Shown here in pieces: positions 1-16,885 of a stretch of DNA of 64,000 bases. Origin of the DNA: Patescibacteria group bacterium (lineage in GTDB: Bacteria > Patescibacteriota > Minisyncoccia > Phycocordibacterales > JBBTRF01); contig JBBTRF010000001.1 in assembly GCA_038065315.1 (NCBI GenBank), positions 464,458 through 528,457 of the forward strand. Direction: 5' to 3'. Made by a program: the position numbers and the translations under genes. Every line of letters begins with the position of its first letter. The stretch's first letter is position 1. The notes under the pieces are model-generated. The model was given only the letters and a program-made list of their open reading frames with translations, searched no databases and was not told where the DNA came from.

Positions 1-205
1 CCATCATCTTGCCCTTCATCTTGAGAGAGGTAGCGGCCGCGAGGGTCTTCCCTGCCTCATCGTTGATGAGCTGAGCATACACGTACTTGTTTGATCGATA
101 CACAGCGAGACGAGGGCATGATGCGGTGCCAGAAATCTTCGCGCGAATTCGCTTCTGGCGTCGTGCTCGGGTGATCTGTGCAAGTTGTGTTTTGGTAGTA
201 GCCAT
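1..205 (-). CDS. rplR: 50S ribosomal protein L18 (N-terminal part; gene continues beyond window start)
   Basis: Reverse-complement translation starting at 205 reads [27 protein letters not shown]...[25 protein letters not shown], a typical L18 N-terminus. The frame differs from the listed 16..333 ORF. Confidence 0.8.
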
Positions 206-226
206 GTGAGTGTGAATATGAAGGGA

Positions 227-760
227 TTATGCAGTCTTCTTGCCTTCCTTGCGTCGGATGGTCTCGTCGTCATATCGGATACCTTTGCCCTTGTATGGCT
301 CAGGAACCTTGTTGGCGCGGACCTGCGCGGCAAACTGGCCGACGAGCTCTTTGTCCTGGCCGGTGATAGTGATGAGGTTTTTCTCGGCAGTGACCTTGAG
401 GCCCTTTGGGAGCTTCATGTTCACCGGATGAGAAAAGCCGAGAGACATTGCGAGAGTGTCCCCCTTTACATCAGACTTGTAACCAATGCCTTCGACAATG
501 AGCTTCTTGGTGTAGCCCTTGGTGACGCCTTCCATCATGTTCATGATATGTGAAGACCAAGTGCCCCAAAGCATTTTTGCTTCAGCAGTGGTGTTTTGTG
601 CAGAAACATTCACATGACCATCGGCCACAGCAACGTTGATCAAAGAGTGTATCTCACGAGCAAGCTCACCAAGAGGACCCTTTACGGTCACGACTCGGCC
701 AGCCACAGTAACAGTGGTATTTTCTGGGATAGCGAGAGGTTTTTTGCCGATTCGTGACAT
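227..760 (-). CDS. rplF: 50S ribosomal protein L6
   Basis: 177-aa protein beginning MSRIGKKPLAIPENTTVTVAGRVVTVKGPLGEL, a canonical L6; its position is the conserved L18-L6-S8 order. Confidence 0.95.
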   Translation of the reverse strand: MSRIGKKPLAIPENTTVTVAGRVVTVKGPLGELAREIHSLINVAVADGHVNVSAQNTTAEAKMLWGTWSSHIMNMMEGVTKGYTKKLIVEGIGYKSDVKGDTLAMSLGFSHPVNMKLPKGLKVTAEKNLITITGQDKELVGQFAAQVRANKVPEPYKGKGIRYDDETIRRKEGKKTA

Positions 761-778
761 GTGAGTATGATTAAATAA

Positions 779-1171
779 TTACCAGATCTTAAAGAGAAGC
801 TCGCCGCCAAGGCCGTCCTTTCGAGCTTGCACGTCGGTCATGACTCCCTTTGAGGTAGAGACAACGAGAGTACCGAAGCCATTCTTCACTCGAGGCAGGT
901 CGGTGGCACCAGCATAGATGCGCTTAGAAGGCTTTGAGATCCGCTCAGCACCGTGCATTCGAGCGAGGTTGCCTGTGTAGACGAGCTTGATCTCGACACT
1001 CCTGATTCCTTTCTTGCCTTTCTTCGTGGCATTCTTCACGTAGCCTTCCTTCTCGAGGAGGTCAGTGACGGCCATCAAAAGATTTGAGTATGGCAAAGTG
1101 ACGAGCTCTTTCTGTGAAGCAGCTGCGTTTTTGATATTTGAAATGTAGTCGCTGAGAGTATCCTTTACCAT
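779..1171 (-). CDS. rpsH: 30S ribosomal protein S8
   Basis: 130 aa; S8 signature (...LLEKEGYV...GIRSVEIKL...); lies between the S14 and L6 genes as in the spc operon. Confidence 0.95.
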
Positions 1172-1350
1172 GATGATTTTTTAATGCCTGGGATCATGCC
1201 TTCGTTCGCGAACTCTCGGAAGCAGATACGGCAGAGACCGAAATCTCGCATAAAGCCTCGCTTTCGACCACAGCGGAAACAGCGTCGAACAATCCGAGTA
1301 GAAAACTTCGGTTTCTTCTGAGATCGTGCGATGACTGATGTTTTCGCCAT
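1165..1350 (-). CDS. rpsZ: 30S ribosomal protein S14 type Z (zinc-binding)
   Basis: 61 aa starting at the internal Met [32 protein letters not shown]...CRIC; contains the CxxC...CxxC zinc ribbon. The listed ORF has a non-homologous 5' extension. Confidence 0.9.
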
Positions 1351-1445
1351 TGTGGATTGATAATTAAAAAAATGAGGCTCTTTGGGAGCGTGGAGACATA
1401 CTAGCAATACGGACTGCCGATGTCAAACCACGCTTCCCTGCTTGA

Positions 1446-2027
1446 TTATTCCTTGGCTTTCCGACCCTTCGCGGCCAGCTTCTTCTCCTCCTCCGGCTTC
1501 ATGAAAGGGATGCCGAGGTATTCGAAGAAGATCTCCGCCGACTTTGCATCCTTCGCCGTGGTGACGATGGTCGCCGCGAAGCCGAAGACGTCCTTGAGCT
1601 CTTCGTCTGAAGTCTCAGGGAAGATGGTGTGCTCGCGGATACCGATGTTGATGTTACCCATCTCATCGATGGCCTTGCGCGCAATACCACGGAAGTCCTT
1701 GGTTCGAGGGAGGGCGATGTTGATGAGCTTGTTGAGGAAGTTCACCATTCGATCGCCTCGGAGGGTCACCTGGTAGCCGGCTGGGTCGCCCTGTCGAGAC
1801 TTGAAGGTCGCGATCGACTTTTTCGCTGTCTTCACCACTACTTTCTGGCCCGCGATGCGGTTCATGCGGTCGGCGATGAGCTCGATCTTCTTCTTGTCCT
1901 TTACAGAACCAATGCCAGACGAAAGCACCACCTTTACGAGCTTTGGTGTTTCCATGATATTCGTAATACCAAGAGCTCCCTTGAGGGTCTCGAATGTCTT
2001 ATTCTGCTTTTCTTTTACTCCGTTCAT
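1446..2027 (-). CDS. rplE: 50S ribosomal protein L5
   Basis: 193 aa with L5 motifs and the conserved operon position. Carries a Lys-rich C-terminal tail. Confidence 0.95.
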   Translation of the reverse strand: MNGVKEKQNKTFETLKGALGITNIMETPKLVKVVLSSGIGSVKDKKKIELIADRMNRIAGQKVVVKTAKKSIATFKSRQGDPAGYQVTLRGDRMVNFLNKLINIALPRTKDFRGIARKAIDEMGNINIGIREHTIFPETSDEELKDVFGFAATIVTTAKDAKSAEIFFEYLGIPFMKPEEEKKLAAKGRKAKE

Positions 2028-2038
2028 GATAGTTATGA

Positions 2039-2269
2039 TTATTTCTTACGAGCTTCGACGAGCTTAACGTTTGAGACGTGAATCGGCATCGCCTTCTCGA
2101 CAATTTCACCCTTTTTGCCATTTCGCTGAGCCTTGATGTGTCGCTTGTGGACATTGACGCCGTCAACCAATACCAAATTCTCCTTTGGCATCGCCTTGAG
2201 GATCTTGCCTTTCTTGCCCTTGTCCTTGCCGGCAATCACTATTACGTTTTCGTCTTTTTTTACGTGCAT
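2039..2269 (-). CDS. rplX: 50S ribosomal protein L24
   Basis: 76 aa with a KOW-like motif (MHVKKDENVIVIAGKDKGKKGKIL); sits between the L14 and L5 genes. Confidence 0.9.
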   Translation of the reverse strand: MHVKKDENVIVIAGKDKGKKGKILKAMPKENLVLVDGVNVHKRHIKAQRNGKKGEIVEKAMPIHVSNVKLVEARKK

Positions 2270-2290
2270 TGGAGTATGGTTATGGTCTCG

Positions 2291-2662
2291 TTATACGATT
2301 TCTGGGGCCAAAGAAGCGATCTTCTGGAAACCCTTTTCCGCGATTTCTCGAGGGATAGGACCGAAGACACGGCCGCCGATTGGCTCCATCTTTTCTCGCT
2401 CGATGATCACCACAGCGTTCTCATCGAATCGGATGTATGAACCGTCCTTGCGTCGGAATGGGTTGCGCTGTCGCACGACCACTGCTCGAAGAACATCCTT
2501 CTTCTTGATCGCCTTTCGAGGCTCTGCCTTCTGCACAGAGAGGATCACGAGCTCACCGATCTGGGCGTATCGCTTCCCCGCGCTGCCGAGCACTTTGAAG
2601 ATACGGCCGATCTTCGCGCCGGTGTTGTCTGCAATAGTTACGATTGAGCGTGGTTGGATCAT
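2291..2662 (-). CDS. rplN: 50S ribosomal protein L14
   Basis: 123 aa beginning MIQPRSIVTIADNTGAK, a canonical L14. Confidence 0.95.
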   Translation of the reverse strand: MIQPRSIVTIADNTGAKIGRIFKVLGSAGKRYAQIGELVILSVQKAEPRKAIKKKDVLRAVVVRQRNPFRRKDGSYIRFDENAVVIIEREKMEPIGGRVFGPIPREIAEKGFQKIASLAPEIV

Positions 2663-2671
2663 GGAAGTGTA

Positions 2672-2965
2672 TTAAATAACGCGGAAATGCTTATTCTTCG
2701 AGATCGGTCGAGTCTCGATGATAGTGACAGTATCGCCGATCTTCTTGGTGTTGCCTGCATCGTGTGCCTGGAATCGCTTGGTGCTCTTCATGTACTTGCC
2801 GTACTTTGGCATTTTGTTGAAGGTATCGACAGCGACGACAATAGTGTCCTTCATTTTGTCAGACACGACCTTGCCGGTGAGAGTCTTCGGCTTCGATACA
2901 ACCGCAGCCGCAGGAGCGGTGCCCTGGGAGACTTTGGTTGCTTTGATTTTAGTGTTCTTTTCCAT
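2672..2965 (-). CDS. rpsQ: 30S ribosomal protein S17
   Basis: 97 aa; S17 core (...GKVVSDKMKDTIVVAV...HDAGNTKKIGDTVTIIETRPISKNKHFRV). Confidence 0.9.
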   Translation of the reverse strand: MEKNTKIKATKVSQGTAPAAAVVSKPKTLTGKVVSDKMKDTIVVAVDTFNKMPKYGKYMKSTKRFQAHDAGNTKKIGDTVTIIETRPISKNKHFRVI

Positions 2966-2970
2966 GAAAA

Positions 2971-3240
2971 TTATTTAACGGTAACTTTAGCAACCTTGGC
3001 CTTCGCCGCCTTCTTTGACGCAGCAACTGCCTTTGGAGCAACTGGGACGACAGGCGTAGCATTGTTTCGCGCAGAGACCTCGGTGAGAAGTCGAGCAATG
3101 TCCTTTCGGAGATTTCGGCCAGCCTTCACATCCTTGAGCTTGCTACCAGAAGAGCCAAGTCGAAACTCCTTCAAAGCCACTCGCTTCTCATCGATGGTCT
3201 TCAAAATTTCTTTGTCGCTGATTTTCTTGATTTCTTTCAT
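2971..3240 (-). CDS. rpmC: 50S ribosomal protein L29 (with Ala/Lys-rich C-terminal extension)
   Basis: 89 aa; L29 pattern (...LKEFRLG...LRKDIARLLT...); lies between the L16 and S17 genes. Confidence 0.85.
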   Translation of the reverse strand: MKEIKKISDKEILKTIDEKRVALKEFRLGSSGSKLKDVKAGRNLRKDIARLLTEVSARNNATPVVPVAPKAVAASKKAAKAKVAKVTVK

Positions 3241-3245
3241 GGGAG

Positions 3246-3662
3246 TTATCGTGAAATGACCTTAGACTTCAATGGGAGCTTGGTGCCTGCCTTTCGAAGA
3301 GCCTCCTTTGCTTCGGTGTCGACAACACCGTCCACCTCAAAGATGATACGACCTGCCTTCACTTCTGCACAGTATCCCTGTGGCTCACCCTTTCCGGAAC
3401 CCATCGGCACTTCAGCGGCCTTTGCGGTATATGGCATGTCTGGGAAAATGCGAATCCACACCTTTCCTGACTTTCCAGCAAATCGAGAGATCACCTTTCG
3501 TGCTGCTTCGATCTGGTTTGAGGTTACTCGCGCAGGGGTCATCGCCTTGAGGCCAAATGATCCAAATGCCAAAGCAATGCCTCGAGTCTCGATGAAAGGC
3601 TTAGCGTAGTTTCGGCGCATTCGGTGCCACTTGCGATGTTTTACTTTCTTTGGGAGTAACAT
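3246..3662 (-). CDS. rplP: 50S ribosomal protein L16
   Basis: 138 aa beginning MLLPKKVKHRKWHRMRR, a canonical L16. Confidence 0.95.
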   Translation of the reverse strand: MLLPKKVKHRKWHRMRRNYAKPFIETRGIALAFGSFGLKAMTPARVTSNQIEAARKVISRFAGKSGKVWIRIFPDMPYTAKAAEVPMGSGKGEPQGYCAEVKAGRIIFEVDGVVDTEAKEALRKAGTKLPLKSKVISR

Positions 3663-3673
3663 GGGAGTGTTGG

Positions 3674-4369
3674 TTAGTTCTGATTGTGGTTAGGCTTCGC
3701 CGCCTTTGCCTTCTCAGCAAAGATCTCACCTCGGTAGATCCACACCTTGATGCCGATGTCGCCATAGGTCATGTGCGCCTTTTCACGCTTGAAATCTACA
3801 TCGGCTCGCAAGGTCTGGAGAGGAACTCGGCCACGCTTGAGCTCTTCCTGTCGGGCCATATCGGCACCGCCAAGTCGGCCAGTGAGATAGATCTTCACTC
3901 CCAAGACGTCTCGGTTTGCCATCACCTTCTCAATGGTCTGCTTCATGACGCGTCGGAATGGGAGGCGCTTCTCGAGGCCTTCTGCCACAGTGTAGGCAAC
4001 GATGGCTGCATTAGACTCAGGAGATCGGACCTCTTCGATGTCGAGCTTGAGCTCTGGAGGCATTGCAAGCTTGTTCTTCTTGATGAAATTGAGGATGTCG
4101 TTTCGCAACGCGGTGGCACCTTCTCCACTCTTGCCGATGAGCATACCTGGTCGAGAAGTCTTGATGACCACGCGAAGGTTTTTAGAATTTCGCTCGATAT
4201 CTACGCCAGCAGTATAAAAACCACGGAGTTTCTTGTCCAAATATTCACGAAGAGTGACGTCGCACTTGAGGTACGATACGTACTTTGTCTTGTCCGCGCC
4301 GAACCAGCGAGACTTCCAGTCTCGGATGATTCCCAATCGATGTGCATATGGATGGACGACGTGTGACAT
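3674..4369 (-). CDS. rpsC: 30S ribosomal protein S3
   Basis: 231 aa; S3 KH and C-terminal domains (MSHVVHPYAHRLGIIRDWKSRWF...). Confidence 0.95.
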   Translation of the reverse strand: MSHVVHPYAHRLGIIRDWKSRWFGADKTKYVSYLKCDVTLREYLDKKLRGFYTAGVDIERNSKNLRVVIKTSRPGMLIGKSGEGATALRNDILNFIKKNKLAMPPELKLDIEEVRSPESNAAIVAYTVAEGLEKRLPFRRVMKQTIEKVMANRDVLGVKIYLTGRLGGADMARQEELKRGRVPLQTLRADVDFKREKAHMTYGDIGIKVWIYRGEIFAEKAKAAKPNHNQN

Positions 4370-4373
4370 GTGA

Positions 4374-4787
4374 TTATTTGCTATCTTTGTTAGTTTTTGG
4401 AGCCGCTTTTACCGCGCTCGCTGTCTTCGCGGCCTTTGTCACCTTTTTTGGCTTCTCTGCCACGACATCCAAGACCAAAGTGACGTGGCTTGAGTGCTTG
4501 TGGATCGGGAAAGCGCTACCACGAGCTCGAGGCATGCTGCGCTTCATGATGGTGCCGCCATTGACCTGCACGTTTTTGATGAAAAGGTTCTCTGCAGAGA
4601 GATTGAAGTTGGTCTTCGCGTTGGCCACAGCAGAAGCAATGAGCTTCTTCATTGGACCAGAAGCTTCCTTCACGAGGAAATCAAGCATGGTCATCGCATC
4701 GCCTACTTTCTTGCCCTTTACGAGATTCGCCACGAGACGAACCTTTCGCGGAGCCTGTCGATAATCGTTGAGTGATGCGGTAACCAT
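4374..4787 (-). CDS. rplV: 50S ribosomal protein L22 (Lys/Ala-rich C-terminal extension)
   Basis: 137 aa; L22 core (...VRLVANLVKGKKVGDAMTMLDF...). Confidence 0.9.
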   Translation of the reverse strand: MVTASLNDYRQAPRKVRLVANLVKGKKVGDAMTMLDFLVKEASGPMKKLIASAVANAKTNFNLSAENLFIKNVQVNGGTIMKRSMPRARGSAFPIHKHSSHVTLVLDVVAEKPKKVTKAAKTASAVKAAPKTNKDSK

Positions 4788-4823
4788 TGGAGTATTGATA
4801 AAATGAAGGATGATTATGCTGGA

Positions 4824-5165
4824 TTATTTCTTTTCTGCCACGGTGGCCTTAGCGGTCTGGGCAGCTGCGATCTCAGCCTCCTTCTTCTTGGCCTCAAGCT
4901 CCTTCTGCATCTTACCTCCGTGTCGTACAAACTTTCGGGTAAGCGCAAATTCACCGAGGCGGTGACCTACCATTTCCTCGGTGACAAGCACTTCAATATG
5001 ATCTTTGCCATTGTGGACGCCAAACTTATATCCCACCATTTCCGGTGAAATCTGGCTGTCTCGAGCCCAGGTCTTAATAACCCCAGCTTGTTCTGGCTTC
5101 TTGCCGGCGATCTTCTTGAGAAGAATCTCCGCTACATATGGTCCTTTTGCGAGTGATCGGGTCAT
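4824..5165 (-). CDS. rpsS: 30S ribosomal protein S19
   Basis: S19 core [19 protein letters not shown]...[13 protein letters not shown] plus a Lys/Glu/Ala tail. The listed ORF extends 10 codons upstream (to 5195) without homology, so the internal Met start was chosen; no Shine-Dalgarno is visible for either start. Confidence 0.85.
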
Positions 5166-5228
5166 GAATGAATGAAAACAGCTCACCTGAGCCATGGCTT
5201 AGTATCTTAGCAGAAGCATATATAATGT

Positions 5229-5339
5229 CAACCCGCCGCCCCGCTCCCTTCGGGCACGCGTCAAAACTCTGCTGAGTTTTGCACTCACTCTCAGGCCGTC
5301 GCCTTCCGAGAGACCCTCAGGGAGCGAGGCGGCGGGTTG
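5229..5339. repeat. Nested-hairpin intergenic repeat, copy A (20-bp outer inverted repeat with 1 mismatch; internal hairpin caaaactc-tgct-gagttttg; GC block ctctcaggccgtcgccttccgagag)
   Basis: Outer arms are caacccgccgccccgctccc (5229-5248) and gggagcgaggcggcgggttg (5320-5339). The core is homologous to copies at 11909, 16773, 25249 and 39297. Confidence 0.7.
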
Positions 5340-5445
5340 TTCATTGTGCAACAATTAGTGTCGTTTTACCGAGAGCGGAATGAAATTGTTATGAAGATTT
5401 TGCTTGTAAGTAGCCGTACTGGTTATATATAGTTACGGGTGCTAG

Positions 5446-5940
5446 ATGATGAAGAAACCCGCAAATAACTATGCTTTTATAGATAGCCAGAATCTGAATT
5501 TGGGTGTACTTGGTCTTGGTTGGAGGCTTGATTTTTCGCGCTTTCGAGTCTATCTGAAAGATAAGTATGATGTGTCTAGTGCCTTTATTTTTATAGGATA
5601 CGTACCCGGGAATGAGAGGTTGTACTCTTACCTCCAAAAATCTGGCTATATTTGTATTTTTAAACCCACCCTGGAATTACCTGATGGGGCAGTGAAAGGC
5701 AATGTCGACGCCGAACTCGTACTGAACACCATGATTGAGCTTCCAAATTTCGACAAAGCAGTGGTCGTTTCTGGGGACGGTGACTTCTACTGCCTGGCAC
5801 GACACCTTATTTCGAATAGAAAATGTGAAGCGATCATTGTACCGAACAAATACAAATACTCTGCTCTCTTGAGATTCAAAGACATTAAGCCCTACCTCCG
5901 TTTCATAAACGACCTGCAAAACAAGCTTGAGAAAAAATAA
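5446..5940 (+). CDS. NYN-domain (LabA/PIN-like) ribonuclease family protein
   Basis: 164 aa; NYN hallmarks include the N-terminal AFIDSQNL motif, acidic residues (D..E) and the SGDGDF motif. Transcribed divergently from rpsS. Confidence 0.8.
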   Translation: MMKKPANNYAFIDSQNLNLGVLGLGWRLDFSRFRVYLKDKYDVSSAFIFIGYVPGNERLYSYLQKSGYICIFKPTLELPDGAVKGNVDAELVLNTMIELPNFDKAVVVSGDGDFYCLARHLISNRKCEAIIVPNKYKYSALLRFKDIKPYLRFINDLQNKLEKK

Positions 5941-6039
5941 AAGAAAAGGCCCCGCAAGGACGGAACCTTGAAGGGTGATCTTTTCCATTCGTGATATTGA
6001 TAATTCTATCAAACTCAAGAAAGGAGTCAAGGCGATGAA

Positions 6040-6166
6040 GTAGCCCAAGTATCTACCCCCAGAGAGACCCCTATTCCGACTTTCGCCAGAGATACTCTCA
6101 TCGTTTCCCTTTCGAGAAACCGCAGTGGACGGGGATTTTCTGACCTTTAGAAGTAGATACTTGGGC
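6040..6166. other. 16-bp perfect inverted repeat (tagcccaagtatctac / gtagatacttgggcta) flanking a 94-nt spacer
   Basis: Read directly from the sequence between the NYN gene and the DinJ-like gene. Confidence 0.6.
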
Positions 6167-6232
6167 TATTTCAATTCGCTTTTCTATACCTAAGGCATAT
6201 ACCAAAAGTAGCCGAGCGGTCAAGTGTCGCGA

Positions 6233-6502
6233 TTAGGAAAGTAGGTGTTTTGTTAATTCCTCAGCATTCTTGTACCGCTTCCCATGCTTCTCCGCCCATT
6301 CGGTCTCCTTGATCATTCGCGCTTCCTGGCCAGGAGTAAAACCATTAACAGTCCTGATCTCAAAAGGAATCGACTTGGTGCGAGATACCGTACGAAGAAA
6401 CAACTTCATCGCGGAAGACATGTCCAAACCAAGCTCGGCAAGCACCTTTTGAGCGCTTACTTTGGTCGCCTTATCGATACGAAGTTGAATAGTGGTGTTC
6501 AT
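6233..6502 (-). CDS. DinJ/RelB-family antitoxin-like protein (orphan; no RelE/YafQ partner adjacent)
   Basis: 89 aa starting at the second Met, MNTTIQLRIDKATKVSAQKVLAELGLDMSSAMKLFLRTV...IPFEI, a DinJ ribbon-helix-helix pattern. Paralogous to the DinJ gene at 24890. Confidence 0.75.
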   Translation of the reverse strand: MNTTIQLRIDKATKVSAQKVLAELGLDMSSAMKLFLRTVSRTKSIPFEIRTVNGFTPGQEARMIKETEWAEKHGKRYKNAEELTKHLLS

Positions 6503-6540
6503 CACTCTAGTATAGACAATGTCACTACTTTGTCAATACG

Positions 6541-7461
6541 TTAGATATTCTTTGAAAAAAGGATCTTTGAGTCGAAATCTGCTATCTCATTTACTGCCTT
6601 CGATGTAGACCGGACAAACTCCGTCTCATCTTTTCTCGAATGTCCTTCCATCTTCCAGCGTAGGGAGACAAGAAGTCTGATTAGCACGAGGGTCTGGATA
6701 TCACGCATGGCCCCGGCCAACTCACTTTCGCCATACTCATATCCCTTAAGAAAAATGGCGATGTTCTCTTTGCCGGTATTCCAAGTAAATAGATCCGTAA
6801 GTTCCCCATGAGGCGCCCGGTGCCCACAAGAAGTTCCCCAATCCACAAGATAAATGGCTCCTGAAGGATGCACAACAACATTACTCAAATGAAGATTGCC
6901 ATGACACAATGTTGGGGCATATTGCCAAGAGCGGACTTCATTCACCCTCTTTTTAATACTCAAGAGTTTCTCACTGGAAAACACGCCTGCACTTTGGAAA
7001 AAGTTGTCTCCAAAAAGCTTGTCGTCAACATAATCAAGATCAAACTTGCAATCCGGTGCTGGGATGGCATTGAATTTCTTGGCATACTGACCTAAAGTAA
7101 GCCAAATTCTCCCTGCCTCCTTTGGCAAATCCCTACCATCAACACCCTCAATGAATTCTTGGAACGAGAATGAGTGCCCTACCTCCTCCCCTATCGCAAT
7201 ACACTTCGGGGTCGGAATATTTATCTTGGAAACCTCATCCATGCACCACTTCTCTCTTTGGTAGGTTTTGAGGGCCTTTCCACCTTTCTGCATCCGCAAG
7301 ATATAATCCACACCATTTACAGTAACCTTGCAGACAAGATTCACCACCCCCTTACCCCTAATCTCCTCGATCGATGAGGGTAGCACCCCGAAGACCTTCT
7401 TGGTAATTTGATCAACGACTTCTTTCATATATTTCTCTTTTATTTGCACTAATCGTATCAC
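6541..7461 (-). CDS. Aminoglycoside/choline-kinase-like phosphotransferase (APH family) with a non-canonical catalytic motif HGN instead of HGD
   Basis: 306 aa. It has an N-lobe Lys motif, the Brenner-type loop CHGNLHLSNVVV and the metal-binding motif VDWGTS, giving the APH/kinase-like fold. The catalytic Asp is replaced by Asn. Confidence 0.75.
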   Translation of the reverse strand: MIRLVQIKEKYMKEVVDQITKKVFGVLPSSIEEIRGKGVVNLVCKVTVNGVDYILRMQKGGKALKTYQREKWCMDEVSKINIPTPKCIAIGEEVGHSFSFQEFIEGVDGRDLPKEAGRIWLTLGQYAKKFNAIPAPDCKFDLDYVDDKLFGDNFFQSAGVFSSEKLLSIKKRVNEVRSWQYAPTLCHGNLHLSNVVVHPSGAIYLVDWGTSCGHRAPHGELTDLFTWNTGKENIAIFLKGYEYGESELAGAMRDIQTLVLIRLLVSLRWKMEGHSRKDETEFVRSTSKAVNEIADFDSKILFSKNI

Positions 7462-7484
7462 AAAGTGTTAACGCCAGGGCTGTG

Positions 7485-7528
7485 TAGCCAAAAGAAAAAT
7501 CCCCTCTCGGGGATTTTTCTTTTGGCTA
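7485..7528. terminator. Perfect 20-bp palindromic hairpin (tagccaaaagaaaaatcccc tctc ggggatttttcttttggcta), a bidirectional intrinsic terminator immediately after the rplB stop
   Basis: The stem contains A/T runs on both sides and ends 1 nt before the rplB stop codon at 7529. Confidence 0.7.
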
Positions 7529-8377
7529 CTAAGCCTCCTTCTTCTTCCCAACCTTTCGTCGAGAGACGATAAACTGATTTGAGTATCGCTTTGGAGTTCG
7601 AGTCTTCTGACCCTTACCTGAAGGCTTACCCCACATGGTCTTCGCTCGGCGGAGACCTCGGCCCTGCTTACCTTCTCCTCCTCCGTATGGGTGGTCTACT
7701 GGGTTCATCACCATACCTCGGACAGTCGGTCGAATACCCATCCATCGAGATCGTCCTGCCTTGCCAATGTTCACGAGCCAATTTTCATCATTTGAAACAG
7801 TACCGATAGAACCCCAAGCGGTGTCGAGCACCTTTCGTACTTCGGTAGAAGGCATCTTGAGGTGAGTCATGCCAGCATCCTGTGCGATCACCTGGATAAA
7901 GTTGCCGGCTGATCGTCCGAGCTGTGCGACGCCACTTGGCTGGATAGACACGCTGTGCACAAAGGCGCCAACAGGAATGTTCTTCAAAAGAGTTCGGTTG
8001 CCAGTCTTGAGCTCCGCCTTTTCTGAGACAATAATGCTGTCCCCCACCTTGAGATCCTTTGGAGAAAGGATGTAGCGCTTCTCGCCATCCTTGTAACACA
8101 CGAGCGCAATGAAACCGGTGCGGTTTGGATCGTACTCAATGGTCTGCACTACAGCAGGAATATCTTTCTTATCGAAAACAAAGTCAACGTGTCGATAGAG
8201 TCGCTTGTGTCCACCGCCCTTATGTCGCACAGTGATGCGGCCGTCGGAGTTGCGCCCGACTCGATGCTTGAAACCAGAGACGAGCGCCTTATGAGGAGTG
8301 TCAGTGGTCAAGTGCTCGCTGTATGACACAGTGGTCATACCTCGGCGAGATTTGGTGAATGGTTTATAGTGTTTCAT
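7529..8377 (-). CDS. rplB: 50S ribosomal protein L2
   Basis: 282 aa beginning MKHYKPFTKSRRGMT, with the ...GGGHKRLYR... L2 signature. Confidence 0.95.
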   Translation of the reverse strand: MKHYKPFTKSRRGMTTVSYSEHLTTDTPHKALVSGFKHRVGRNSDGRITVRHKGGGHKRLYRHVDFVFDKKDIPAVVQTIEYDPNRTGFIALVCYKDGEKRYILSPKDLKVGDSIIVSEKAELKTGNRTLLKNIPVGAFVHSVSIQPSGVAQLGRSAGNFIQVIAQDAGMTHLKMPSTEVRKVLDTAWGSIGTVSNDENWLVNIGKAGRSRWMGIRPTVRGMVMNPVDHPYGGGEGKQGRGLRRAKTMWGKPSGKGQKTRTPKRYSNQFIVSRRKVGKKKEA

Positions 8378-8400
8378 TGGAGTATTTGGTGGTGCGACGA

Positions 8401-8697
8401 TTATACAAATTCAATGGTCTCCTTCTTGCCGAGGGTGACGTAGGCCTTCTTGCCTCCCTGCTTTACGCCTGCCTTGCCTCGGACAAAAGATCGCTTTGAA
8501 GGTACCGCGAGGATCTTTACGTCGATCGGAGTCACCTTGTACAAGGTCTTGATCGCAGCCTTGATAGATGCCACGTTGGCACTCTGGGTCACGTTGAAGG
8601 TGTAGACCTTCTTCTCGGCCAAGCGAGCGGCCTTCTCGGTGATGCGTGGGCCGAGGATGACAGATACTGGGTCGTGTTTTACGGTAATGGTAGTCAT
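8401..8697 (-). CDS. rplW: 50S ribosomal protein L23
   Basis: 98 aa; L23 pattern and the conserved order L4-L23-L2. Confidence 0.9.
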   Translation of the reverse strand: MTTITVKHDPVSVILGPRITEKAARLAEKKVYTFNVTQSANVASIKAAIKTLYKVTPIDVKILAVPSKRSFVRGKAGVKQGGKKAYVTLGKKETIEFV

Positions 8698-8698
8698 G

Positions 8699-9421
8699 TT
8701 ATTTCTTTGCAGTCTTAGCTACTTTCTTTGGCTCACTCGCTGCGGTTCGCGCCGGAAGTCGGCTTGCAAGAGATGCGACACTCACCTTTGGATTCTCGAT
8801 CACGACGTACTTGTACTTCATGAGGTCGAGGACGTTGAGATTTCGTACTTCGTTGACCGAGATATTGCTCATGTTGCCGAAGCTTCGGTCTGCTGAAGCG
8901 CTCTTTGCAGACATCGCAATGAAAGCGGCGTTGTTCTTCTTGGTAGCGAGCATCTCGTAGCCCTTTACGCCAGCGAGTGCAGCGATGAGAGACTTTGCGT
9001 GCTTGGTCTTGGCCTCCTTGAGAGCAATAGACTCAACAAACAACACTTCGCCGTCTCGCATCTTCTTTGAGAGCAGGGTGAAAAGCGCCTTCGCCTTCAT
9101 CTTCTGGTTGACCTTTCGGTCGAAGTTCTTGTCATTTCGAGGACCATGAGACACACCTCCACCTGGCCACAACGGTGATCGGATAGAACCGTGTCGGGCA
9201 CGACCAGTACCCTTCTGCTGCCATGGCTTCTTACCGCCTCCTCGTACATCACCTCGAGTCTGAGTGTGAGCGACTGGATTGCGCTTTGAAGTCATCATTG
9301 AGGTCATGACCTGGTGTACCAAGTCGGCGTTCCAGTTCAAACCAAAGACATTCTCTGGGAGCTCGAAAGCGCCAGCAGCCTTGCCGTCCTGAGTGTAGAT
9401 TTTTGCTTCTAGAGTATTCAT
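8699..9421 (-). CDS. rplD: 50S ribosomal protein L4
   Basis: 240 aa; L4 family features (...RGGGKKPWQQKGTGRARHGS...). Confidence 0.9.
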   Translation of the reverse strand: MNTLEAKIYTQDGKAAGAFELPENVFGLNWNADLVHQVMTSMMTSKRNPVAHTQTRGDVRGGGKKPWQQKGTGRARHGSIRSPLWPGGGVSHGPRNDKNFDRKVNQKMKAKALFTLLSKKMRDGEVLFVESIALKEAKTKHAKSLIAALAGVKGYEMLATKKNNAAFIAMSAKSASADRSFGNMSNISVNEVRNLNVLDLMKYKYVVIENPKVSVASLASRLPARTAASEPKKVAKTAKK

Positions 9422-9442
9422 GGGTTCAGGGTTATTTCAGGA

Positions 9443-10057
9443 TTACTGTGCGATCACTTCTACCAAAGTACCTCGTCGGCCTGGAATTGCTCCAGAAACA
9501 AGAAGAAGGTTCTCTGTGGCGTTGATCTGCACGACCTTGAGGTTCTTGACAGTAACACGATCACCACCCATTCGTCCAGCCATTCGCATACCGGGAGCCA
9601 CACGGCCGCCGGCTCGTCCTGCACCAGAGATGGTACCGACTTCTCGCTCAGAGTGCTTCTGACCGTGGGTTCGGGAACCTCCCTTGAAGCCGTGTCGCTT
9701 CACTGCACCCTGGAAACCCTTGCCCTTGCTGATCGAAGACACTTCGATCTCATCGCCTTCCTTGAAGACAGAGACGTCGAATTTGTCTCCCAGCTTCTGG
9801 GTAGGAGCGGCCACGCGGAACTCCTTGAGGGTTCGGAAAAGACCGAGCGCCTTGGTGTGTCCCTTTTGAGGCTTCGAGACGAGCTTCTCGCGAATCTCGC
9901 CAAATCCAATCTGAACAGCTGAATAGCCATCCTTTCCGGACTCTTTAACCTGGGTTACAGTCACCGGACCGGCCTTGAGGACGGTCACTGGGTGAACATT
10001 TCCCTCTTGGTCGAAGACCTGGGTCATATTCAGTTTTGTTCCGATAATGAATTTCAT
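9443..10057 (-). CDS. rplC: 50S ribosomal protein L3
   Basis: 204 aa beginning MKFIIGTKLNMTQVFDQEGNVHPVTVL, a canonical L3. Confidence 0.95.
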   Translation of the reverse strand: MKFIIGTKLNMTQVFDQEGNVHPVTVLKAGPVTVTQVKESGKDGYSAVQIGFGEIREKLVSKPQKGHTKALGLFRTLKEFRVAAPTQKLGDKFDVSVFKEGDEIEVSSISKGKGFQGAVKRHGFKGGSRTHGQKHSEREVGTISGAGRAGGRVAPGMRMAGRMGGDRVTVKNLKVVQINATENLLLVSGAIPGRRGTLVEVIAQ

Positions 10058-10097
10058 GTGGGTTAGGTGAGGCGGTTAGTGGGGTGAATACTGGTGG

Positions 10098-10487
10098 TTA
10101 GATCATCTTGACGTCGATGTTGACTCCTGAAGGCAGGCTCAGGTTGGTGAGTGCCTCAATTGTCTTTGGATTTGGGTTCACAATGTCAATCAATCGCTTG
10201 TGCACTCGCATCTCAAACTGCTCTCGCGCGTCTTTGTAGACAAAGGCAGCTCGGTTTACGGTGTACTTCTTGATCTCTGTAGGGAGCGGAATCGGTCCGA
10301 GGATAGTGGCATCGTATCGAAGCGCAGTGTCCATGATCTGCTTCACGGAAGCATCGAGGATCTTGTGTTCGTACGCTCGCACACGAATGCGGAGCTTGTG
10401 GCTCACCTCCTGGCCCTTTACCGTAGCCTTGGCGACTTTCGTCTTGCCCTTGGCCTTATCGGCCGTCTTTGTTTCTTTTGTGGTCAT
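10098..10487 (-). CDS. rpsJ: 30S ribosomal protein S10 (with ~28-aa Lys-rich N-terminal extension)
   Basis: S10 core ...[42 protein letters not shown]... Confidence 0.9.
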
Positions 10488-10531
10488 GTTGAGTATGTGG
10501 CTCCTCTTGAATTGGTCGCGGAGCCGGCGAT

Positions 10532-11728
10532 TTACTTAGTGATCTTGGTGACCACTCCTGCACCGACGGTTCGTCCGCCTTCTCGCACAGCAAATCGCAT
10601 CTTTTCCTCGAGTGCAATCGGCGCTACGAGCTTGACGATGAACTTCACGGTGTCTCCTGGCATAACCATTTCAGTGCCCGCAGCGAGGGTTACCTCACCG
10701 GTGACGTCTGTGGTTCGGATGTAGAACTGTGGCTTGTACCCATTGAAGAATGGAGTGTGTCGGCCACCTTCTTCCTTCTTGAGAACGTAGATTTCACCCT
10801 CGAAGTCGGTGTGAGGAGTGGTAGTACCTGGCTTTGCAAGTACCTGACCTCGGGTAACGTCTTCCTTTCGAGTACCTCGGAGGAGAACACCCGCGTTGTC
10901 ACCTGCCATACCTTCGCTGAGCTGCTTGTTGAACATTTCGATACCAGTGATGGTAGACTTTGCAGTCGGCTTGAGACCAATGATCTCAACTTCCTCGCCA
11001 ACCTTTGCGATTCCTCGCTCGATTCGGCCAGTAACCACAGTACCTCGTCCTTCAATAGAGAAGATGTCTTCGATTGGCATCAAGAATGGCTTGTCGATCT
11101 CACGCACTGGCATAGGGATATAGGTGTCGAGTGAGTTCAAAAGCTCATCGATCTTTGCAACCCATGCTGCATCGCCTTCGATCGCCTTCAAAGCTGAACC
11201 TCGAATCACTGGAGTACCCTTTCCGTCGAAACCATACTTCTCGAGAAGGTCTCGGATTTCTGCCTCAACGAGGTCGAGCATGTCCTTGTCATCCACCATG
11301 TCGCACTTGTTCAAGAAGACCACGATCTTTGGAACACCCACCTGCTTTGCGAGGAGAATGTGCTCTCGAGTCTGTGGCATTGGACCGTCTACCGCAGATA
11401 CCACGAGGATAGCGCCGTCCATCTGAGCGGCACCAGTGATCATGTTCTTGACGTAGTCAGCGTGACCTGGACAGTCGACGTGAGCGTAGTGTCGAGCCAC
11501 AGTTGAATACTCAACGTGTGAAATCGCAATGGTAATAATCTTTGAAGGGTCGCGTCGGCCGTCCTTTTCAGATGCCTTCGCTACCTGGTCGTATGCAATA
11601 GGATTTGCAAGACCTTTCTTTGACTGAACAACAGTAAGAGCCGCGGTAAGAGTAGTCTTGCCGTGGTCGACGTGTCCAATAGTACCGACGTTTACGTGAG
11701 GCTTTGATCGATCAAATGCTTCTGCCAT
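10532..11728 (-). CDS. tuf: Elongation factor Tu
   Basis: 398 aa with the [10 protein letters not shown] and DCPGHADY motifs; full-length EF-Tu. Confidence 0.97.
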
Positions 11729-11908
11729 ATATTTAATGAGTCCCTAATTCTCAAAGCTCAACGCGCGAGAGTGGCTGAGCCTTGTAACTTAAGAACAAAA
11801 ATTAATGATAATAAATCGTGTTAATACCAGGACGTTTCTTTTGATTCGAAACGGCCAAAGACGCAAAAAATGCGACAATGGGTATAGTAACAAATTGGCC
11901 GATAAAGT

Positions 11909-12022
11909 CAACCTTGGCGCACTGGCCGCCTCAGACACGCCGTAAATTTCTCCTGAAATTTCGGCTCCTCTCGGCGCCGTCGCGCCTGCGAGAGGTCTTC
12001 GTCAGCCAGTGCGCCAAGGTTG
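11909..12022. repeat. Nested-hairpin intergenic repeat, copy D (18-bp perfect outer inverted repeat caaccttggcgcactggc / gccagtgcgccaaggttg)
   Basis: Core: acgccgt + aaatttc-tcct-gaaattt + cggctcc + tctcggcgccgtcgcgcctgcgagag. Lies between the Phd-ParE toxin-antitoxin pair and tuf. Confidence 0.75.
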
Positions 12023-12056
12023 GTTTGATAGACATTTGTTGCTAGACCCGATTGTC

Positions 12057-12296
12057 TTAGAGGTGGTAGGTGGTGTCGTCGCGATTGGTGACATCGAGTA
12101 GAAAGATGTCGTCGTTGGTGAGGTGAAAGAGTATTCTGTATTGACCGGAACGCACTCTATAGATATCAAGGCCTCCTTTGAGCTTTTTCAGGTCGAGACC
12201 AACGAAGTTGCGCGATTTGATTTGAGCAATGATCAGCAGGATCCGTCCTCTTTGCTTTTCTTCCAGCTTGGCGAGGAATTTATCAATTTTGTGCAT
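12057..12296 (-). CDS. ParE/RelE-family type II toxin
   Basis: 79 aa with a RelE/ParE pattern (...YRVRSGQYRILFHLTNDDIFLLDVTNRDD.Y). Overlaps the upstream antitoxin gene by 14 nt. Confidence 0.8.
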   Translation of the reverse strand: MHKIDKFLAKLEEKQRGRILLIIAQIKSRNFVGLDLKKLKGGLDIYRVRSGQYRILFHLTNDDIFLLDVTNRDDTTYHL

Positions 12297-12531
12297 CGAG
12301 ACGCTTCAGGGAGGCAAGCACTTCATCGATATGCACCCCCTTTGGATCAATTTGAGTAAAATCCACCAATGTCTTCCACACCCCTTCGTCTCCCCACTCG
12401 TCGACGGGCACCATTTTGAATGCCGGTTTCGACTTTTTCACCACGACGAAAGACCGCCCTTTTTCTACTTCAGAAATATATTTTTCCATGTTCTCTCGCA
12501 GCTCTTTTAGGCCGATAATATTGGTTTTCAT
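12283..12531 (-). CDS. Phd/YefM-family type II antitoxin
   Basis: 82 aa beginning MKTNIIGLKELRENMEKYISEVEKGRSFVVVKKSKPAFKMVPV, a YefM/Phd fold pattern. Confidence 0.8.
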   Translation of the reverse strand: MKTNIIGLKELRENMEKYISEVEKGRSFVVVKKSKPAFKMVPVDEWGDEGVWKTLVDFTQIDPKGVHIDEVLASLKRLDAQN

Positions 12532-12534
12532 AGC

Positions 12535-12562
12535 ACAAGTTTATCTTAAGATAAACTTGTGT
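12535..12562. promoter_or_regulatory. 12-bp perfect palindrome (cacaagtttatc tta gataaacttgtg) 3 nt upstream of the Phd start codon; candidate toxin-antitoxin autoregulatory operator
   Basis: Read directly. Type II toxin-antitoxin promoters are classically repressed through palindromic operators. Confidence 0.5.
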
Positions 12563-12610
12563 CAACCAAGCCTGCCGTCGACAAAACAGACAAAGAAAGC
12601 ATATCAGAGT

Positions 12611-12665
12611 GGCGATAAAGAAACTGCTAAGAAATGTTCAAGAAAAAGCTAATTTTTGATAAAGA
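12611..12665. repeat. Bipartite A-rich repeat, copy 1: AGAAACTGCTAAGAAA-N18-TTTTTGATAAAGA
   Basis: The same two blocks with the same 18-nt spacing recur at 32986-33045. Confidence 0.55.
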
Positions 12666-12687
12666 TTCAACAAAGAAAGTCTAGGGG

Positions 12688-13431
12688 CTACTCCGCTGCA
12701 ACACCGCCCAAAAACACTTTGCTGAGCGTATCGCCCTTGATAATCTCGGCAGCAGGACCGGCAGCCACTACCCTACCCTTGTCGAGTACATAGGCACGAT
12801 GAGCAACTTCGAGAAGAGATTTGATATTGTGCTCCACCACCACGACAGCCATCTTGCGGCGCTGGTTGATCTCGAGGATCTTGGCGAACATTTCCTTCAC
12901 GATCTTCGGAGCAAGACCGAGCGACGGCTCATCGAGCAGGAGGATCTTTGGGTCGGTCATGAGGCCGCGGGCGATCGCGAGCATTTGCTGTTGGCCGCCG
13001 GAGAGATTGGAGGATTTTTCCGAGAGTCGGCTACGTAGTGCCGGGAACAGATCAAGCACCTGCTCGAGACGCTCGGCACGAATCTTTGCAGAAGCGACGG
13101 TCCAGCCGCCGAGTTCGATATTCTCACGGACGCTCAGATGTTTAAACACGCGGCGGCCTTGAGGGACAAATGAAATCCCTCGATGGATCACCTCATGCGA
13201 CACCGGCAAGAAGGTCTGCCCTTCCCAAGAGACCGATCCAGAGCTGATCGGCGCCAAGCCGAAGATCGCCTTGAGTACCGTTGACTTGCCGGCACCGTTT
13301 GGACCCATGAGCGCCACGATCTCGCCTTCATCTATAGACACCGAGGCACCATCAAGAGCCTTCACGCCACCGTAATGGACGTGTAGGTCGCGGGTTTCGA
13401 GAAGGATCTCTCTTTTTACATTATCGGCCAT
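12688..13431 (-). CDS. livF: Branched-chain amino acid ABC transporter ATP-binding protein LivF-like
   Basis: Walker A GPNGAGKST, the ABC signature LSGGQQQ and the Walker B motif LLLDEP. Start set at MADNVK. Confidence 0.85.
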   Translation of the reverse strand: MADNVKREILLETRDLHVHYGGVKALDGASVSIDEGEIVALMGPNGAGKSTVLKAIFGLAPISSGSVSWEGQTFLPVSHEVIHRGISFVPQGRRVFKHLSVRENIELGGWTVASAKIRAERLEQVLDLFPALRSRLSEKSSNLSGGQQQMLAIARGLMTDPKILLLDEPSLGLAPKIVKEMFAKILEINQRRKMAVVVVEHNIKSLLEVAHRAYVLDKGRVVAAGPAAEIIKGDTLSKVFLGGVAAE

Positions 13432-13488
13432 TACGCCTTCAATTCTATCATCGCGGGAGGATGAGGGCGAGCTACTAAACACCGAGCG

Positions 13489-14397: not shown

Positions 14398-14628
14398 GAT
14401 ATGCAGGCGCTTGTGCGCCTTTAATCATACCAAAAAAGGCGCTTGACTCATATTTTCGATTTTGCTAACATACTAACTGTGGTACCTCAGGGGCTTCCGG
14501 AAACGGGAGCCCCTTGAAGCTTCTAGTTGGGAAGATAATGTAGAGGCATAAAAAGACCCACCCGCCATTGCTGGCGGGTGGTAACATCTAACACTCTAAG
14601 TATCGCAAAACTGAATTGAAGTGTCAAT

Positions 14629-15496: not shown

Positions 15497-15511
15497 GTCT
15501 CAATAGTATAG

Positions 15512-15545
15512 CAAAAAACCGCTCGGAGGGAGCGGTTTTTTGCTC
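15512..15545. terminator. Hairpin aaaaaaccgctc-ggaggg-agcggtttttt, a bidirectional intrinsic terminator
   Basis: GC stem flanked by A and T runs, between the liv fragments. Confidence 0.55.
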
Positions 15546-15557
15546 ATTGAGGAAAAA

Positions 15558-16082: not shown

Positions 16083-16234
16083 AATCTACGAACTCGCCTG
16101 GGCCGAAGCAAAACGGCTTGACGCCGACCTACGCCTGAAACCATAGCCCTCATTGACACCCATCTCTTAAAAGAATAGGCTTTAAGGCGGATTTGAATCT
16201 GCACTGTTTTGAATCCAGAAAGGAGGCCGAAACT

Positions 16235-16636: not shown

Positions 16637-16653
16637 TACATGGAGTTTTATCG

Positions 16654-16690
16654 CCCCGCAGCTCAGCCGCGGGGTTTTCTTTTGCAGTTT
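16654..16690 (+). terminator. Intrinsic terminator (ccccgcag...cgcgggg followed by ttttctttt)
   Basis: GC hairpin followed by a T-tract immediately after the 16235..16636 ORF. Confidence 0.6.
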
Positions 16691-16884: not shown

Positions 16885-16885
16885 T

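Follow-up and report, generated by a model that had tools for sequence, protein, structure and literature searches.

A split S10 operon in a groundwater member of the Patescibacteria and the variable gene content of its rplB-rpsS junction

Organization of the rplB-rpsS junction

The junction between the ribosomal protein genes rplB (L2) and rpsS (S19) was analyzed in a 64,000-nucleotide (nt) stretch of DNA, referred to as the window, from a groundwater Patescibacteria genome (candidate phyla radiation, CPR); all coordinates are window positions. In the canonical S10 operon, as in Escherichia coli, rpsJ-rplC-rplD-rplW-rplB-rpsS-rplV-rpsC-rplP-rpmC-rpsQ form one transcription unit, and few gene orders are known to be as stable as the adjacency of L2 and S19. 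The open reading frame (ORF) map of the window showed all 11 S10 genes in canonical order and on one strand, but with 2,333 bp (5196-7528) between rplB and rpsS. The upstream unit, tuf-rpsJ-rplC-rplD-rplW-rplB, is headed by tuf (10532-11728, minus strand) and ends with rplB (7529-8377, minus strand; Pfam domains Ribosomal_L2_N and Ribosomal_L2_C). The downstream unit starts with rpsS (Pfam PF00203; minus strand, listed as 4824-5195 but probably 4824-5165) and continues as rpsS-rplV-rpsC-rplP-rpmC-rpsQ-rplN-rplX-rplE-rpsN-rpsH-rplF and onward, with the spc genes followed to rplF. An earlier note on this DNA had described a gap of about 2.3 kb that divides the operon, and the S10 operon is indeed split here. 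The elements which that note had named in the gap were all found at or near where it had placed them: a hairpin, an APH-fold kinase-like gene, an orphan relB/dinJ-like antitoxin gene, an inverted-repeat structure, a divergent NYN gene and a repeat directly upstream of rpsS. GC content is 0.447 in the gap and 0.507 in the whole window, with the lowest value of the gap (0.412) in the NYN gene.

The gap is no assembly artefact, as three assemblies agree across the junctions. An NCBI contig of a metagenome-assembled genome (MAG; CAYHFM010000005.1, GCA_964355935.1) is identical to window positions 1-10794 except for four bases (7505-7508). ENA contig ERZ1292630 (1,538 bp, Hainich groundwater) covers positions 7560-6023 with one mismatch and crosses the end of rplB, the hairpin, the kinase-like gene, relB and the inverted repeat in one contig. 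In addition, the order rplB...NYN...rpsS is the same in five related genomes, represented here, like all relatives, by MAG contigs with locus labels (L082, L083, L084/L085 and L086). A misassembly, raised as a concern in the earlier note, would require that unrelated contigs had been joined by the assembler at the hairpin or at a repeat. Long perfect palindromes and repeats do lie at both gap borders, and the orientation of the hairpin loop differs between two assemblies; set against the concordance of the three assemblies over the junctions and the repeated gene order in five relatives, a chimera is nevertheless extremely unlikely.

The hairpin that borders the gap on the rplB side (7478-7535, no strand assigned) overlaps the rplB stop codon. 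Its 27-nt arms (7478-7504 and 7509-7535) are separated by a 4-nt loop, are complementary to 93% and pair perfectly over a core of 21 bp; the predicted folding energy (ΔG) is -43.7 kcal/mol (z = -8.8). With its pattern of A-tract, GC stem and T-tract (CCCC-GAGA-GGGG, then ATTTTTCTTTT) it looks like a bidirectional intrinsic terminator in these predictions; it is missing from the output of a terminator scan, since its T-run forms part of the extended stem. The loop (7505-7508) is TCTC in the window as well as the ENA contig, but GAGA in the otherwise identical NCBI contig; either a true inversion polymorphism exists, or the assembler could not resolve the orientation of a perfect inverted repeat.

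On the opposite side of the gap, rpsS is preceded by a promoter-like site (5204-5231, minus strand); promoters, terminators and leaderless starts were predicted throughout from sequence and conservation. The site, TTGACA-16-TGCTAAGAT, reads TTGACA-16-(TG)CTAAGAT with the -10 hexamer TAAGAT, and agrees with the consensus in ten of 12 positions in addition to the TG extension. The first ATG of the rpsS ORF follows after 8 nt, the ATG at 5165 after 38 nt. Promoter and leader are conserved in the five related genomes, while the neighbouring stem sequences vary, and the predicted promoter, which is σ70-like, can be recognized in more distant relatives as well. The earlier expectation that rpsS needs a promoter of its own is thus in line with the promoter-like site at 5231-5204.

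The leader of rpsS (5166-5203, minus strand) comprises a small hairpin followed by a U-run (5195-5178). A similar hairpin and U-run (AAGCTCG-loop-CGAGCTT-TTTT) is found in L010, L025 and L042. This attenuator-like arrangement could serve as an attenuator or autoregulatory leader of the new rpsS-led operon. Alternatively, the segment would encode a 10-amino-acid N-terminal extension of S19; this annotated extension is in doubt, as the S19 proteins of most relatives align only from residue 10-11, which suggests the ATG at 5165 as start.

The junction in related genomes and the probable exchange of its contents

According to its L2 protein the organism belongs to the Patescibacteria, class Paceibacteria; the nearest species representatives carry Taylor-, Zambryski-, Nomurabacteria or Paceibacterota labels and share 59-72% L2 identity. 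The genes rplB and rpsS were located in 80 fetched loci; gap ORFs were called mechanically, and gap sizes, taken from tblastn coordinates, are accurate to about ±30 nt. Both genes were present in 43 Patescibacteria loci, with gaps of more than 1 kb (20 loci), 151-1000 nt (ten), 78-150 nt (eight) or at most 30 nt (five); the gap thus measures 78 nt to 5.3 kb in 38 of the 43, and four of the five loci with the tight junction belong to the most distant CPR genomes. Six further Patescibacteria loci extend for 6 kb past rplB without reaching rpsS. In all 21 non-CPR genomes the gap was 3-64 nt. The comparison suggested in the earlier note therefore shows a junction that is open clade-wide: among about 50 relatives in the Paceibacteria it is hardly ever tight, with gaps between 78 nt and more than 6 kb. 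In one locus (L048) the gap at about 6718-6816 is a run of N (masked), and its size of 100 nt is unreliable.

The contents of the gaps differ widely. No homologue in any other gap was found for 109 of the 140 gap ORFs. Recurrent genes, as identified by Pfam, are the diacylglycerol kinase gene dgkA (11 loci), MazF/PemK toxin genes (four loci), pyrE/pyrF and the genes of L10/L12; a C-5 DNA methylase and a nucleotidyltransferase substrate-binding protein are encoded in others, as are ordinary proteins such as PyrE, PyrF, PyrD, serine hydroxymethyltransferase, L10/L12, L19 and an aminoacyl-tRNA synthetase. In short-gap relatives without an inserted gene the terminator after rplB is still there, and a promoter-like sequence (TTGACW-16/17-TGCTAWTAT) followed by a small hairpin and a U-run precedes rpsS. 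Because these relatives keep both signals without inserts, and judging from the gap distributions, the break into two transcription units appears to be ancestral to the clade and the insertions later. The single acquired cassette that the earlier note had proposed is at odds with a split that is clade-wide and old and with the different contents in different relatives.

Apart from boundary elements, the gaps of L082, L084 and L086 hold only the NYN gene and a 42-codon 3′ remnant of relB with a predicted promoter of its own. L083 has a relB orthologue, the inverted-repeat element and, in place of the APH-like gene, a 7-kb segment with three small ORFs and the genes for a type III methyltransferase (PADLOC, 1e-117) and a type III restriction enzyme (3e-21). 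The window and L083 are homologous exactly up to the stop codon of the APH-like gene (6543) on one side and up to the rplB-proximal hairpin on the other, and these limits define the truly variable sub-site as positions 6544-7477. This sub-site is occupied by the APH-like gene in the window, by the type III restriction-modification (R-M) system in L083 and by nothing in the three others. Among the five relatives the APH-like gene is polymorphic (absent from L082, L083, L084 and L086) and represents the only part of the gap that is specific to this genome, whereas the NYN gene, repeat A and the rpsS promoter are present in all five. The earlier note had reasoned that an insert carried by all close relatives would be ancestral rather than acquired; this applies to the NYN gene, the repeat and the promoter but not to the APH-like gene.

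In the earlier note the whole insert was seen as one defence or addiction cassette (kinase, antitoxin and NYN nuclease); on this view it would have been inserted recently, by a mobile-element mechanism. Such an event would account for the lower GC content of the insert compared with its flanks, for the presence of a toxin-antitoxin (TA) family gene, for a partial PADLOC match of the NYN protein and for the absence of the APH-like gene from close relatives. However, the NYN gene, the rpsS promoter, repeat A and the element after rplB occupy the same place in five relatives, the latter three being ancestral; relB is common to L083 and has left remnants in three others; the junction is open across the whole clade; and the NYN family is very conserved in CPR bacteria and not a sporadic defence gene. 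No gene for an integrase, transposase or recombinase was detected in the insert, where Pfam, NCBIfam and PADLOC searches retrieved only APH, RelB and NYN; the neighbouring genes are ribosomal. Flanking direct repeats, att sites and target-site duplications were not found either, except for a 15-nt A-tract/GC similarity between two terminators. PADLOC assembled no system in the gap, and its match to the NYN protein (2e-8) covers the C-terminal half of a 310-position model. For the NYN gene, the repeat and the promoter the cassette view is already largely refuted, and for the insert as a whole it has become improbable. The proposed defence or addiction content holds in so far as the slot attracts such genes (the orphan relB, the type III R-M system of L083 and the PemK/MazF genes in four relatives), but NYN is a resident and the APH-like protein has no match to a defence system.

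Sequence identities along the locus are mosaic. Judged by eight ribosomal genes, the nearest genome to the window is L086 (89-98% nt identity) and the farthest L082 (83-88%; rpsS 93%), whereas the NYN gene of the window is closest to L082 (80.2% nt and 91% amino acid identity, compared to 74% and 80% for L086). The core subtype of repeat A is common to the window and L082, while relB and the inverted-repeat element are common only to the window and L083. Such mosaic identities are what homologous recombination between related genomes produces, and we infer that contents are exchanged in this way, with the conserved ribosomal genes and the invariant rpsS promoter and leader as putative homology arms.

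The NYN/LabA-like gene (5446-5940, plus strand) is oriented divergently from rpsS and matches PF01936 (4e-11, residues 11-137), which bears out the divergent NYN gene of the earlier note. The domain spans most of the protein, and the homologues listed (162-208 amino acids) carry the same domain. A weak promoter-like site (TTGTAA-18-TATAGT, 5404-5433, plus strand) is located upstream. At least 7,986 of 8,000 scored candidates were homologues at E ≤ 1e-5, with about 60-70% identity across CPR groups; by this measure the gene is conserved at the level of a core gene and encodes a conserved CPR protein. Among the matches listed, the five closest (77-91% amino acid identity) are encoded on contigs L082, L083, L084/L085 and L086, where the gene is likewise divergent between rplB and rpsS. 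None of 80 metagenome loci with more distant homologues (57-69%) lay near rplB, rpsS, rplW or rplV. A metagenome scan with the NYN protein for further close relatives yielded only homologues of 57-69% and no new slot variants, and an exact look-up of the 100% identical NYN protein (P0039) returned no record. Because the distant homologues are not near ribosomal genes, the NYN gene would have entered the slot in an ancestor common to this narrow lineage and has remained since. It is thus a resident and not the cargo for which it was taken in the earlier note, given its very conserved family and its presence in the same slot in all five closest relatives.

An alternative explanation for this location is functional: NYN, perhaps together with the kinase-like protein and RelB, would act on ribosomes or ribosomal protein mRNAs and be kept at the junction for co-regulation. 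Some NYN nucleases, e.g. Bacillus subtilis Rae1/YacP, act on ribosome-bound mRNA, and in all six genomes of the lineage the gene has been kept divergent from rpsS with a common control region of 250 nt. As the distant homologues adjoin none of the four ribosomal genes in any of the 80 loci, other relatives have unrelated genes in the gap and the APH homologues are found in unrelated contexts, this explanation is considered unlikely.

The APH-fold kinase-like gene (minus strand; listed as 6541-7461, more likely 6541-7428 with the ATG used in public annotation, 295 amino acids) matches PF01636 at 4e-15. Its family consists of 38 homologues of about 295 amino acids, all of which are metagenome-derived and the only named one of which is assigned to Minisyncoccia; the nearest shares 53-54% identity. 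A profile built from 17 members produced weak matches (1e-7 to 1e-6) to hygromycin-B 4-O-kinase and choline kinase, with a PDB profile match to the former of 1.3e-7. The fold family and the metal-binding Asp (IDW) are thus shared with these kinases. Unlike them, the protein has HGNLHLSN instead of the canonical catalytic loop HxDxxxxN, such that Asn178, which is invariant in the 17 aligned homologues, aligns to the D of HADFGSNN in hygromycin-B 4-O-kinase. None of the NCBIfam cutoffs was reached (best score 21 bits, cutoffs 205-680), and no known defence system was recognized in a PADLOC scan (PD-T4-6 very weakly at 5e-5, with no domain passing). Of the APH-like kinase in the earlier note the fold was confirmed, whereas HGN in place of HxD and scores below all cutoffs argue against a functional APH. 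A role in aminoglycoside or antibiotic resistance was rejected on the basis of the missing catalytic Asp and the distance from the cutoffs of named families. The protein looks like an accessory kinase-fold protein and is possibly a pseudokinase.

The APH-like family (P0002-P0035) is apparently of CPR origin, with Asn for the catalytic Asp throughout the aligned members. The neighbourhoods of the homologues are unrelated to each other, and one adjoins a type I R-M system; P0002 and P0009 have a neighbourhood with glyoxalase, OmdA and a ribosome hibernation factor in common. Direct or inverted repeats bracketing the gene in the window were searched for, and none were found. A scan of its upstream region revealed no promoter with at least nine of 12 consensus positions. 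Since no comparable promoter precedes the gene and the upstream sequence is homologous to the relB-remnant promoter of L082 and L086, expression may depend on a degraded promoter or on read-through from rplB.

The relB/dinJ antitoxin gene (6233-6502, or 6505, minus strand; 89 amino acids) gives a full-length match to the RelB/DinJ family (PF04221, 9e-15; TIGR02384, 6.8e-21, above cutoff). It was described as an orphan in the earlier note, and it is one: neither a toxin-like ORF nor a toxin remnant was found downstream, tblastn of the downstream segment with the window's own YafQ-like toxin gave nothing, and the three-frame translation is full of stops. A decayed toxin gene was therefore rejected. 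Directly upstream is a strong promoter-like site (TTGACA-16-TATACT, 6509-6536, minus strand; 11 of 12 consensus positions), 91% conserved in L083, whose -10 box ends 6 nt before the ATG, a spacing typical of leaderless mRNA. Family match and upstream promoter-like site are as in RelBE and DinJ-YafQ modules. In contrast to these, there is no toxin, a 140-nt element occupies the toxin position, and the antitoxin is conserved in L083 (89% amino acid, 81% nt identity) without a partner. The C-terminal 42-amino-acid remnants in L082, L084 and L086 are intact mini-ORFs of the last approximately 42 codons (L082, 4764-4886; L084, 8670-8758; L086, 3542-3670), with a TATAAT box 6 nt before the ATG in L082 and L086, again at leaderless-type spacing. 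They may represent a retained micro-protein rather than simple decay. A complete DinJ-like/YafQ-like pair is encoded elsewhere in the window, in the gap between rpsG and fusA (24608-25160, minus strand). It consists of an antitoxin of about 90 amino acids, 32% identical to the orphan RelB, and a YafQ/ParE-like toxin of 88 amino acids, and it follows directly after copy D of the repeat described below, which places a TA module in another gap of a ribosomal cluster.

The structured element in place of the missing toxin gene (6036-6175, minus strand) has a 21-bp closing stem formed by inverted repeat arms (6036-6056 and 6153-6173) that enclose 96 nt, and two GAAA-loop hairpins. The inverted-repeat structure of the earlier note is thereby retained, with a length of 21 instead of 16 bp. 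At 91% identity in L083 it is better conserved than the neighbouring coding genes NYN (75%) and relB (81%), and the alignment can be read to contain one compensatory change (U-A to C-G) and strand-specific G-U pairs. It is absent in L082, L084 and L086 and has no match in Rfam, even at E ≤ 10 with lax filters. The element probably sits in the relB 3′ untranslated region (UTR) and may be a structured 3′ UTR or a RelB-linked small RNA. Within the adjacent segment (5940-6030, minus strand), only about 35 nt separate a promoter-like site (TTGACT-16-TAGAAT, 6030-6003) from an intrinsic terminator (5969-5946 plus T-run). The segment is nearly invariant across five genomes, although the NYN gene diverges by 20-30% at the nt level among them. 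The predicted terminator would end the relB unit before it runs antisense into the NYN gene. As a whole it is a candidate for a small RNA gene (about 55 nt) that converges on NYN; alternatively, it may be a bidirectional terminator under strong constraint.

Three-way-junction elements at operon borders

Repeat A, which the earlier note had correctly placed directly upstream of rpsS (5229-5339, minus strand), has four further copies in the window: copy B before tuf (11902-12029, minus strand), copy C after fusA (16768-16889, plus strand), copy D after rpsG (25246-25330, plus strand) and copy E between a pilC-like gene and tpiA (39289-39398, plus strand). The five copies have in common a core of about 60-70 nt that is predicted to fold as a three-way junction (3WJ); in copy A (ΔG -79 kcal/mol, z -9) the core with its two hairpins is enclosed by a variable outer stem of 21 bp. 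The outer stems are long and wholly different in sequence between copies but always paired, and the conserved centre is asymmetric. Predicted folding energies range from -34 to -79 kcal/mol (z -4.8 to -11.7). Searches with a covariance model recovered exactly these five from the window, together with ten copies from relatives. When the 15 copies were aligned, in an alignment fitted to the model, 87.7% of cells paired and double changes occurred in 20 of 29 pairs; none of 500 shuffles reached this covariation, and slid controls gave 36-48% pairing.

The copy upstream of rpsS is orthologous in L082, L083, L084, L086 and L003, and its 3′ arm extends at the base (GGTTG; GGGTTG in copy A) into the -35 box of the rpsS promoter. 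Directly after rplB, an inverted copy is found in L082, L083, L084 and L014, and a plain hairpin with no 3WJ core in the window and L086. Judging from the homology of its stem (CCAAAAGAAAA...) with the outer stem of the complete copy in L082, the rplB hairpin appears to be a core-less relic of a 3WJ boundary element. What the earlier note had called a perfect 20-bp palindromic terminator is hence a hairpin with a 21-bp perfect core, probably such a relic, and a predicted terminator. In 13 of the 15 copies the core-sense strand folds more stably, by about 6 kcal/mol on average, and the orientation of this strand is always outward, from the variable segment to the conserved operon next to it; the arms are A/T-rich where the element sits at 3′ ends. 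The role best supported by these models is that of a structured boundary element, i.e. a putative terminator or insulator at 3′ ends that abuts promoters at 5′ ends.

A different role would be that of recombination sites in a cassette system, resembling integron attC sites or the hairpins of site-specific or HUH recombinases. The elements flank variable segments in inverted, outward-facing orientation (rplB-rpsS in L082, L083 and L084; fusA-tuf in the window), their fold is conserved while the stem sequence varies, 13 of 15 copies fold better on one strand, and the core is missing from the homologous stem in the window and L086, as might be expected of such sites. On the other hand, no recombinase gene was found in or near the slots, both elements are present where the slot of a relative holds no cargo, and the relB-side cargo boundary does not coincide with any 3WJ. 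Moreover, orthologous copies sit at fixed positions, and none were detected in 500 kb of other CPR DNA or on viral contigs. We therefore give this role only a small chance. The integron-like attC idea in particular was rejected, as there is no integrase, R′/R″ core sites are lacking and elements are present at empty slots.

The 3WJ family is confined to this lineage plus L003 and L014; no copy was found in more than 1 Mb of other CPR loci (500 kb with model R1; 62 loci with the improved model R2, which gave nothing new). A viral origin was rejected as well, as the sole pattern match on a viral contig (8.7 bits, inside a phage structural gene) was attributed to chance. Rfam contains no match to the 3WJ, either at gathering threshold or at E ≤ 10 with lax filters; scans of the whole window at gathering threshold, of the insert at E ≤ 5 and of short segments with lax filters returned only four distant tRNAs and chance-level hairpin matches. 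When repeat A was examined as a miniature inverted-repeat or repetitive extragenic palindromic (REP) element, common terminal inverted repeats were lacking, the outer stems being different, and no target-site duplication was seen. Structured intergenic repeats are known from other bacteria, e.g. REP and bacterial interspersed mosaic elements (BIME), enterobacterial repetitive intergenic consensus (ERIC) sequences and the Correia elements of Neisseria, in which the terminal repeats are the conserved part. The 3WJ elements resemble them as multi-copy hairpin elements of about 85-130 nt between transcription units, some of which abut or supply promoter boxes and some of which are terminator-like. 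They differ in that their ends vary with pairing kept, that the conserved part is the asymmetric central junction and that they belong to no Rfam family.

Further breaks are present in the str operon, with about 5.1 kb between fusA and tuf (11729-16885) and about 6.3 kb between rpsG and fusA (19031-25340). The fusA-tuf gap contains fragmented Liv-type ABC transporter genes (permease and binding-protein domains distributed over several ORFs), which are possibly pseudogenes. The 156 nt before the tuf start codon (11729-11884, minus strand) are 100% identical between the window and L082, compared with 92% for tuf and 83-93% for other ribosomal protein genes. This leader matches no Rfam family or tRNA; its identity suggests a strongly constrained candidate cis-regulatory RNA.

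A divided operon with a probable variable slot

Taken together, the rplB-rpsS junction is likely to be an old, lineage-wide break of the S10 operon in a Paceibacteria clade rather than a fresh insertion, and to serve as a variable slot. The 11 genes, their order and their strand are those of the canonical operon, and the outgroup genomes scanned keep rplB and rpsS at 3-64 nt; in this clade, by contrast, the operon is cut after rplB by a terminator-like hairpin, 0.1 to more than 6 kb of DNA and a separate rpsS promoter and leader. The unit tuf-rpsJ...rplB would end in the hairpin terminator, and the unit rpsS...spc would start from its own σ70-like promoter with a short hairpin-containing leader. 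The slot would tolerate extra DNA because the two operon halves no longer need to be co-transcribed. In this genus-level lineage it would comprise the resident NYN gene, 3WJ elements at both borders (the rplB-side one collapsed to a plain hairpin in this genome), the toxin-less relB module and a variable sub-site between the rplB hairpin and the relB promoter. Content would be exchanged by homologous recombination, with ribosomal genes as arms and without a dedicated mobility enzyme, and a promoter and terminator for each slot gene would insulate the ribosomal units from the slot.

Comparative genomics has established the concept of chromosomal hotspots or islets, in which accessory genes flanked by core genes are exchanged by homologous recombination. 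The junction shares with them a fixed site, different accessory genes or none per genome, the lack of mobility genes and the mosaic signal. It differs in its location inside the most conserved gene cluster of bacteria, its size of 0.3-7 kb, its resident housekeeping-like gene and its structured borders. A literature search found no description of a split rplB-rpsS junction in CPR bacteria or of NYN in Patescibacteria.

Several points weigh against an old break with a slot that recombines. The junction is tight in L047, which shares 62% L2 identity, and the assignment of the break to the ancestor of the clade follows ranks of L2 identity and not a species tree. As the relatives are MAG contigs, gap sizes are approximate and gap ORFs mechanically called. 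Recombination was deduced from discordant identities among five genomes only, and the promoters, terminators and leaderless starts are read from sequence patterns and their conservation. If the APH-like gene is transcribed by read-through of the rplB hairpin, the upstream unit may not be cleanly terminated. The low GC content of the insert (0.447) also fits a foreign origin; as a sign of such an origin it was rejected because the resident NYN gene has the lowest GC content of all (0.412).

A more far-reaching version of this arrangement is put forward only tentatively and is rather less likely to be true than false. The clusters would be organized as modules (rpsL-rpsG, fusA, tuf...rplB and rpsS...), with each junction guarded by a previously undescribed 3WJ insulator or terminator, acting as RNA or as extruded DNA, which would make the parking and exchange of accessory genes safe. 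If so, R-M, TA and kinase-like genes would be parked safely inside the most conserved gene cluster of bacteria.

For binning and phylogeny of uncultivated bacteria, and of CPR bacteria especially, a syntenic block of 16 ribosomal proteins serves as the standard marker. Recovery of this block is affected in a Paceibacteria clade whose junction is filled with variable DNA (0.1 to more than 6 kb), including R-M and TA genes. With respect to operon evolution, even the S10 operon would be divisible once a second promoter exists. The 3WJ family, the element at the 3′ end of relB and the tuf leader have no Rfam match and thus are candidates for new RNA or DNA functions. Finally, the slot would offer a compact, well-bounded system for gene exchange in tiny genomes with few recognizable mobile elements.

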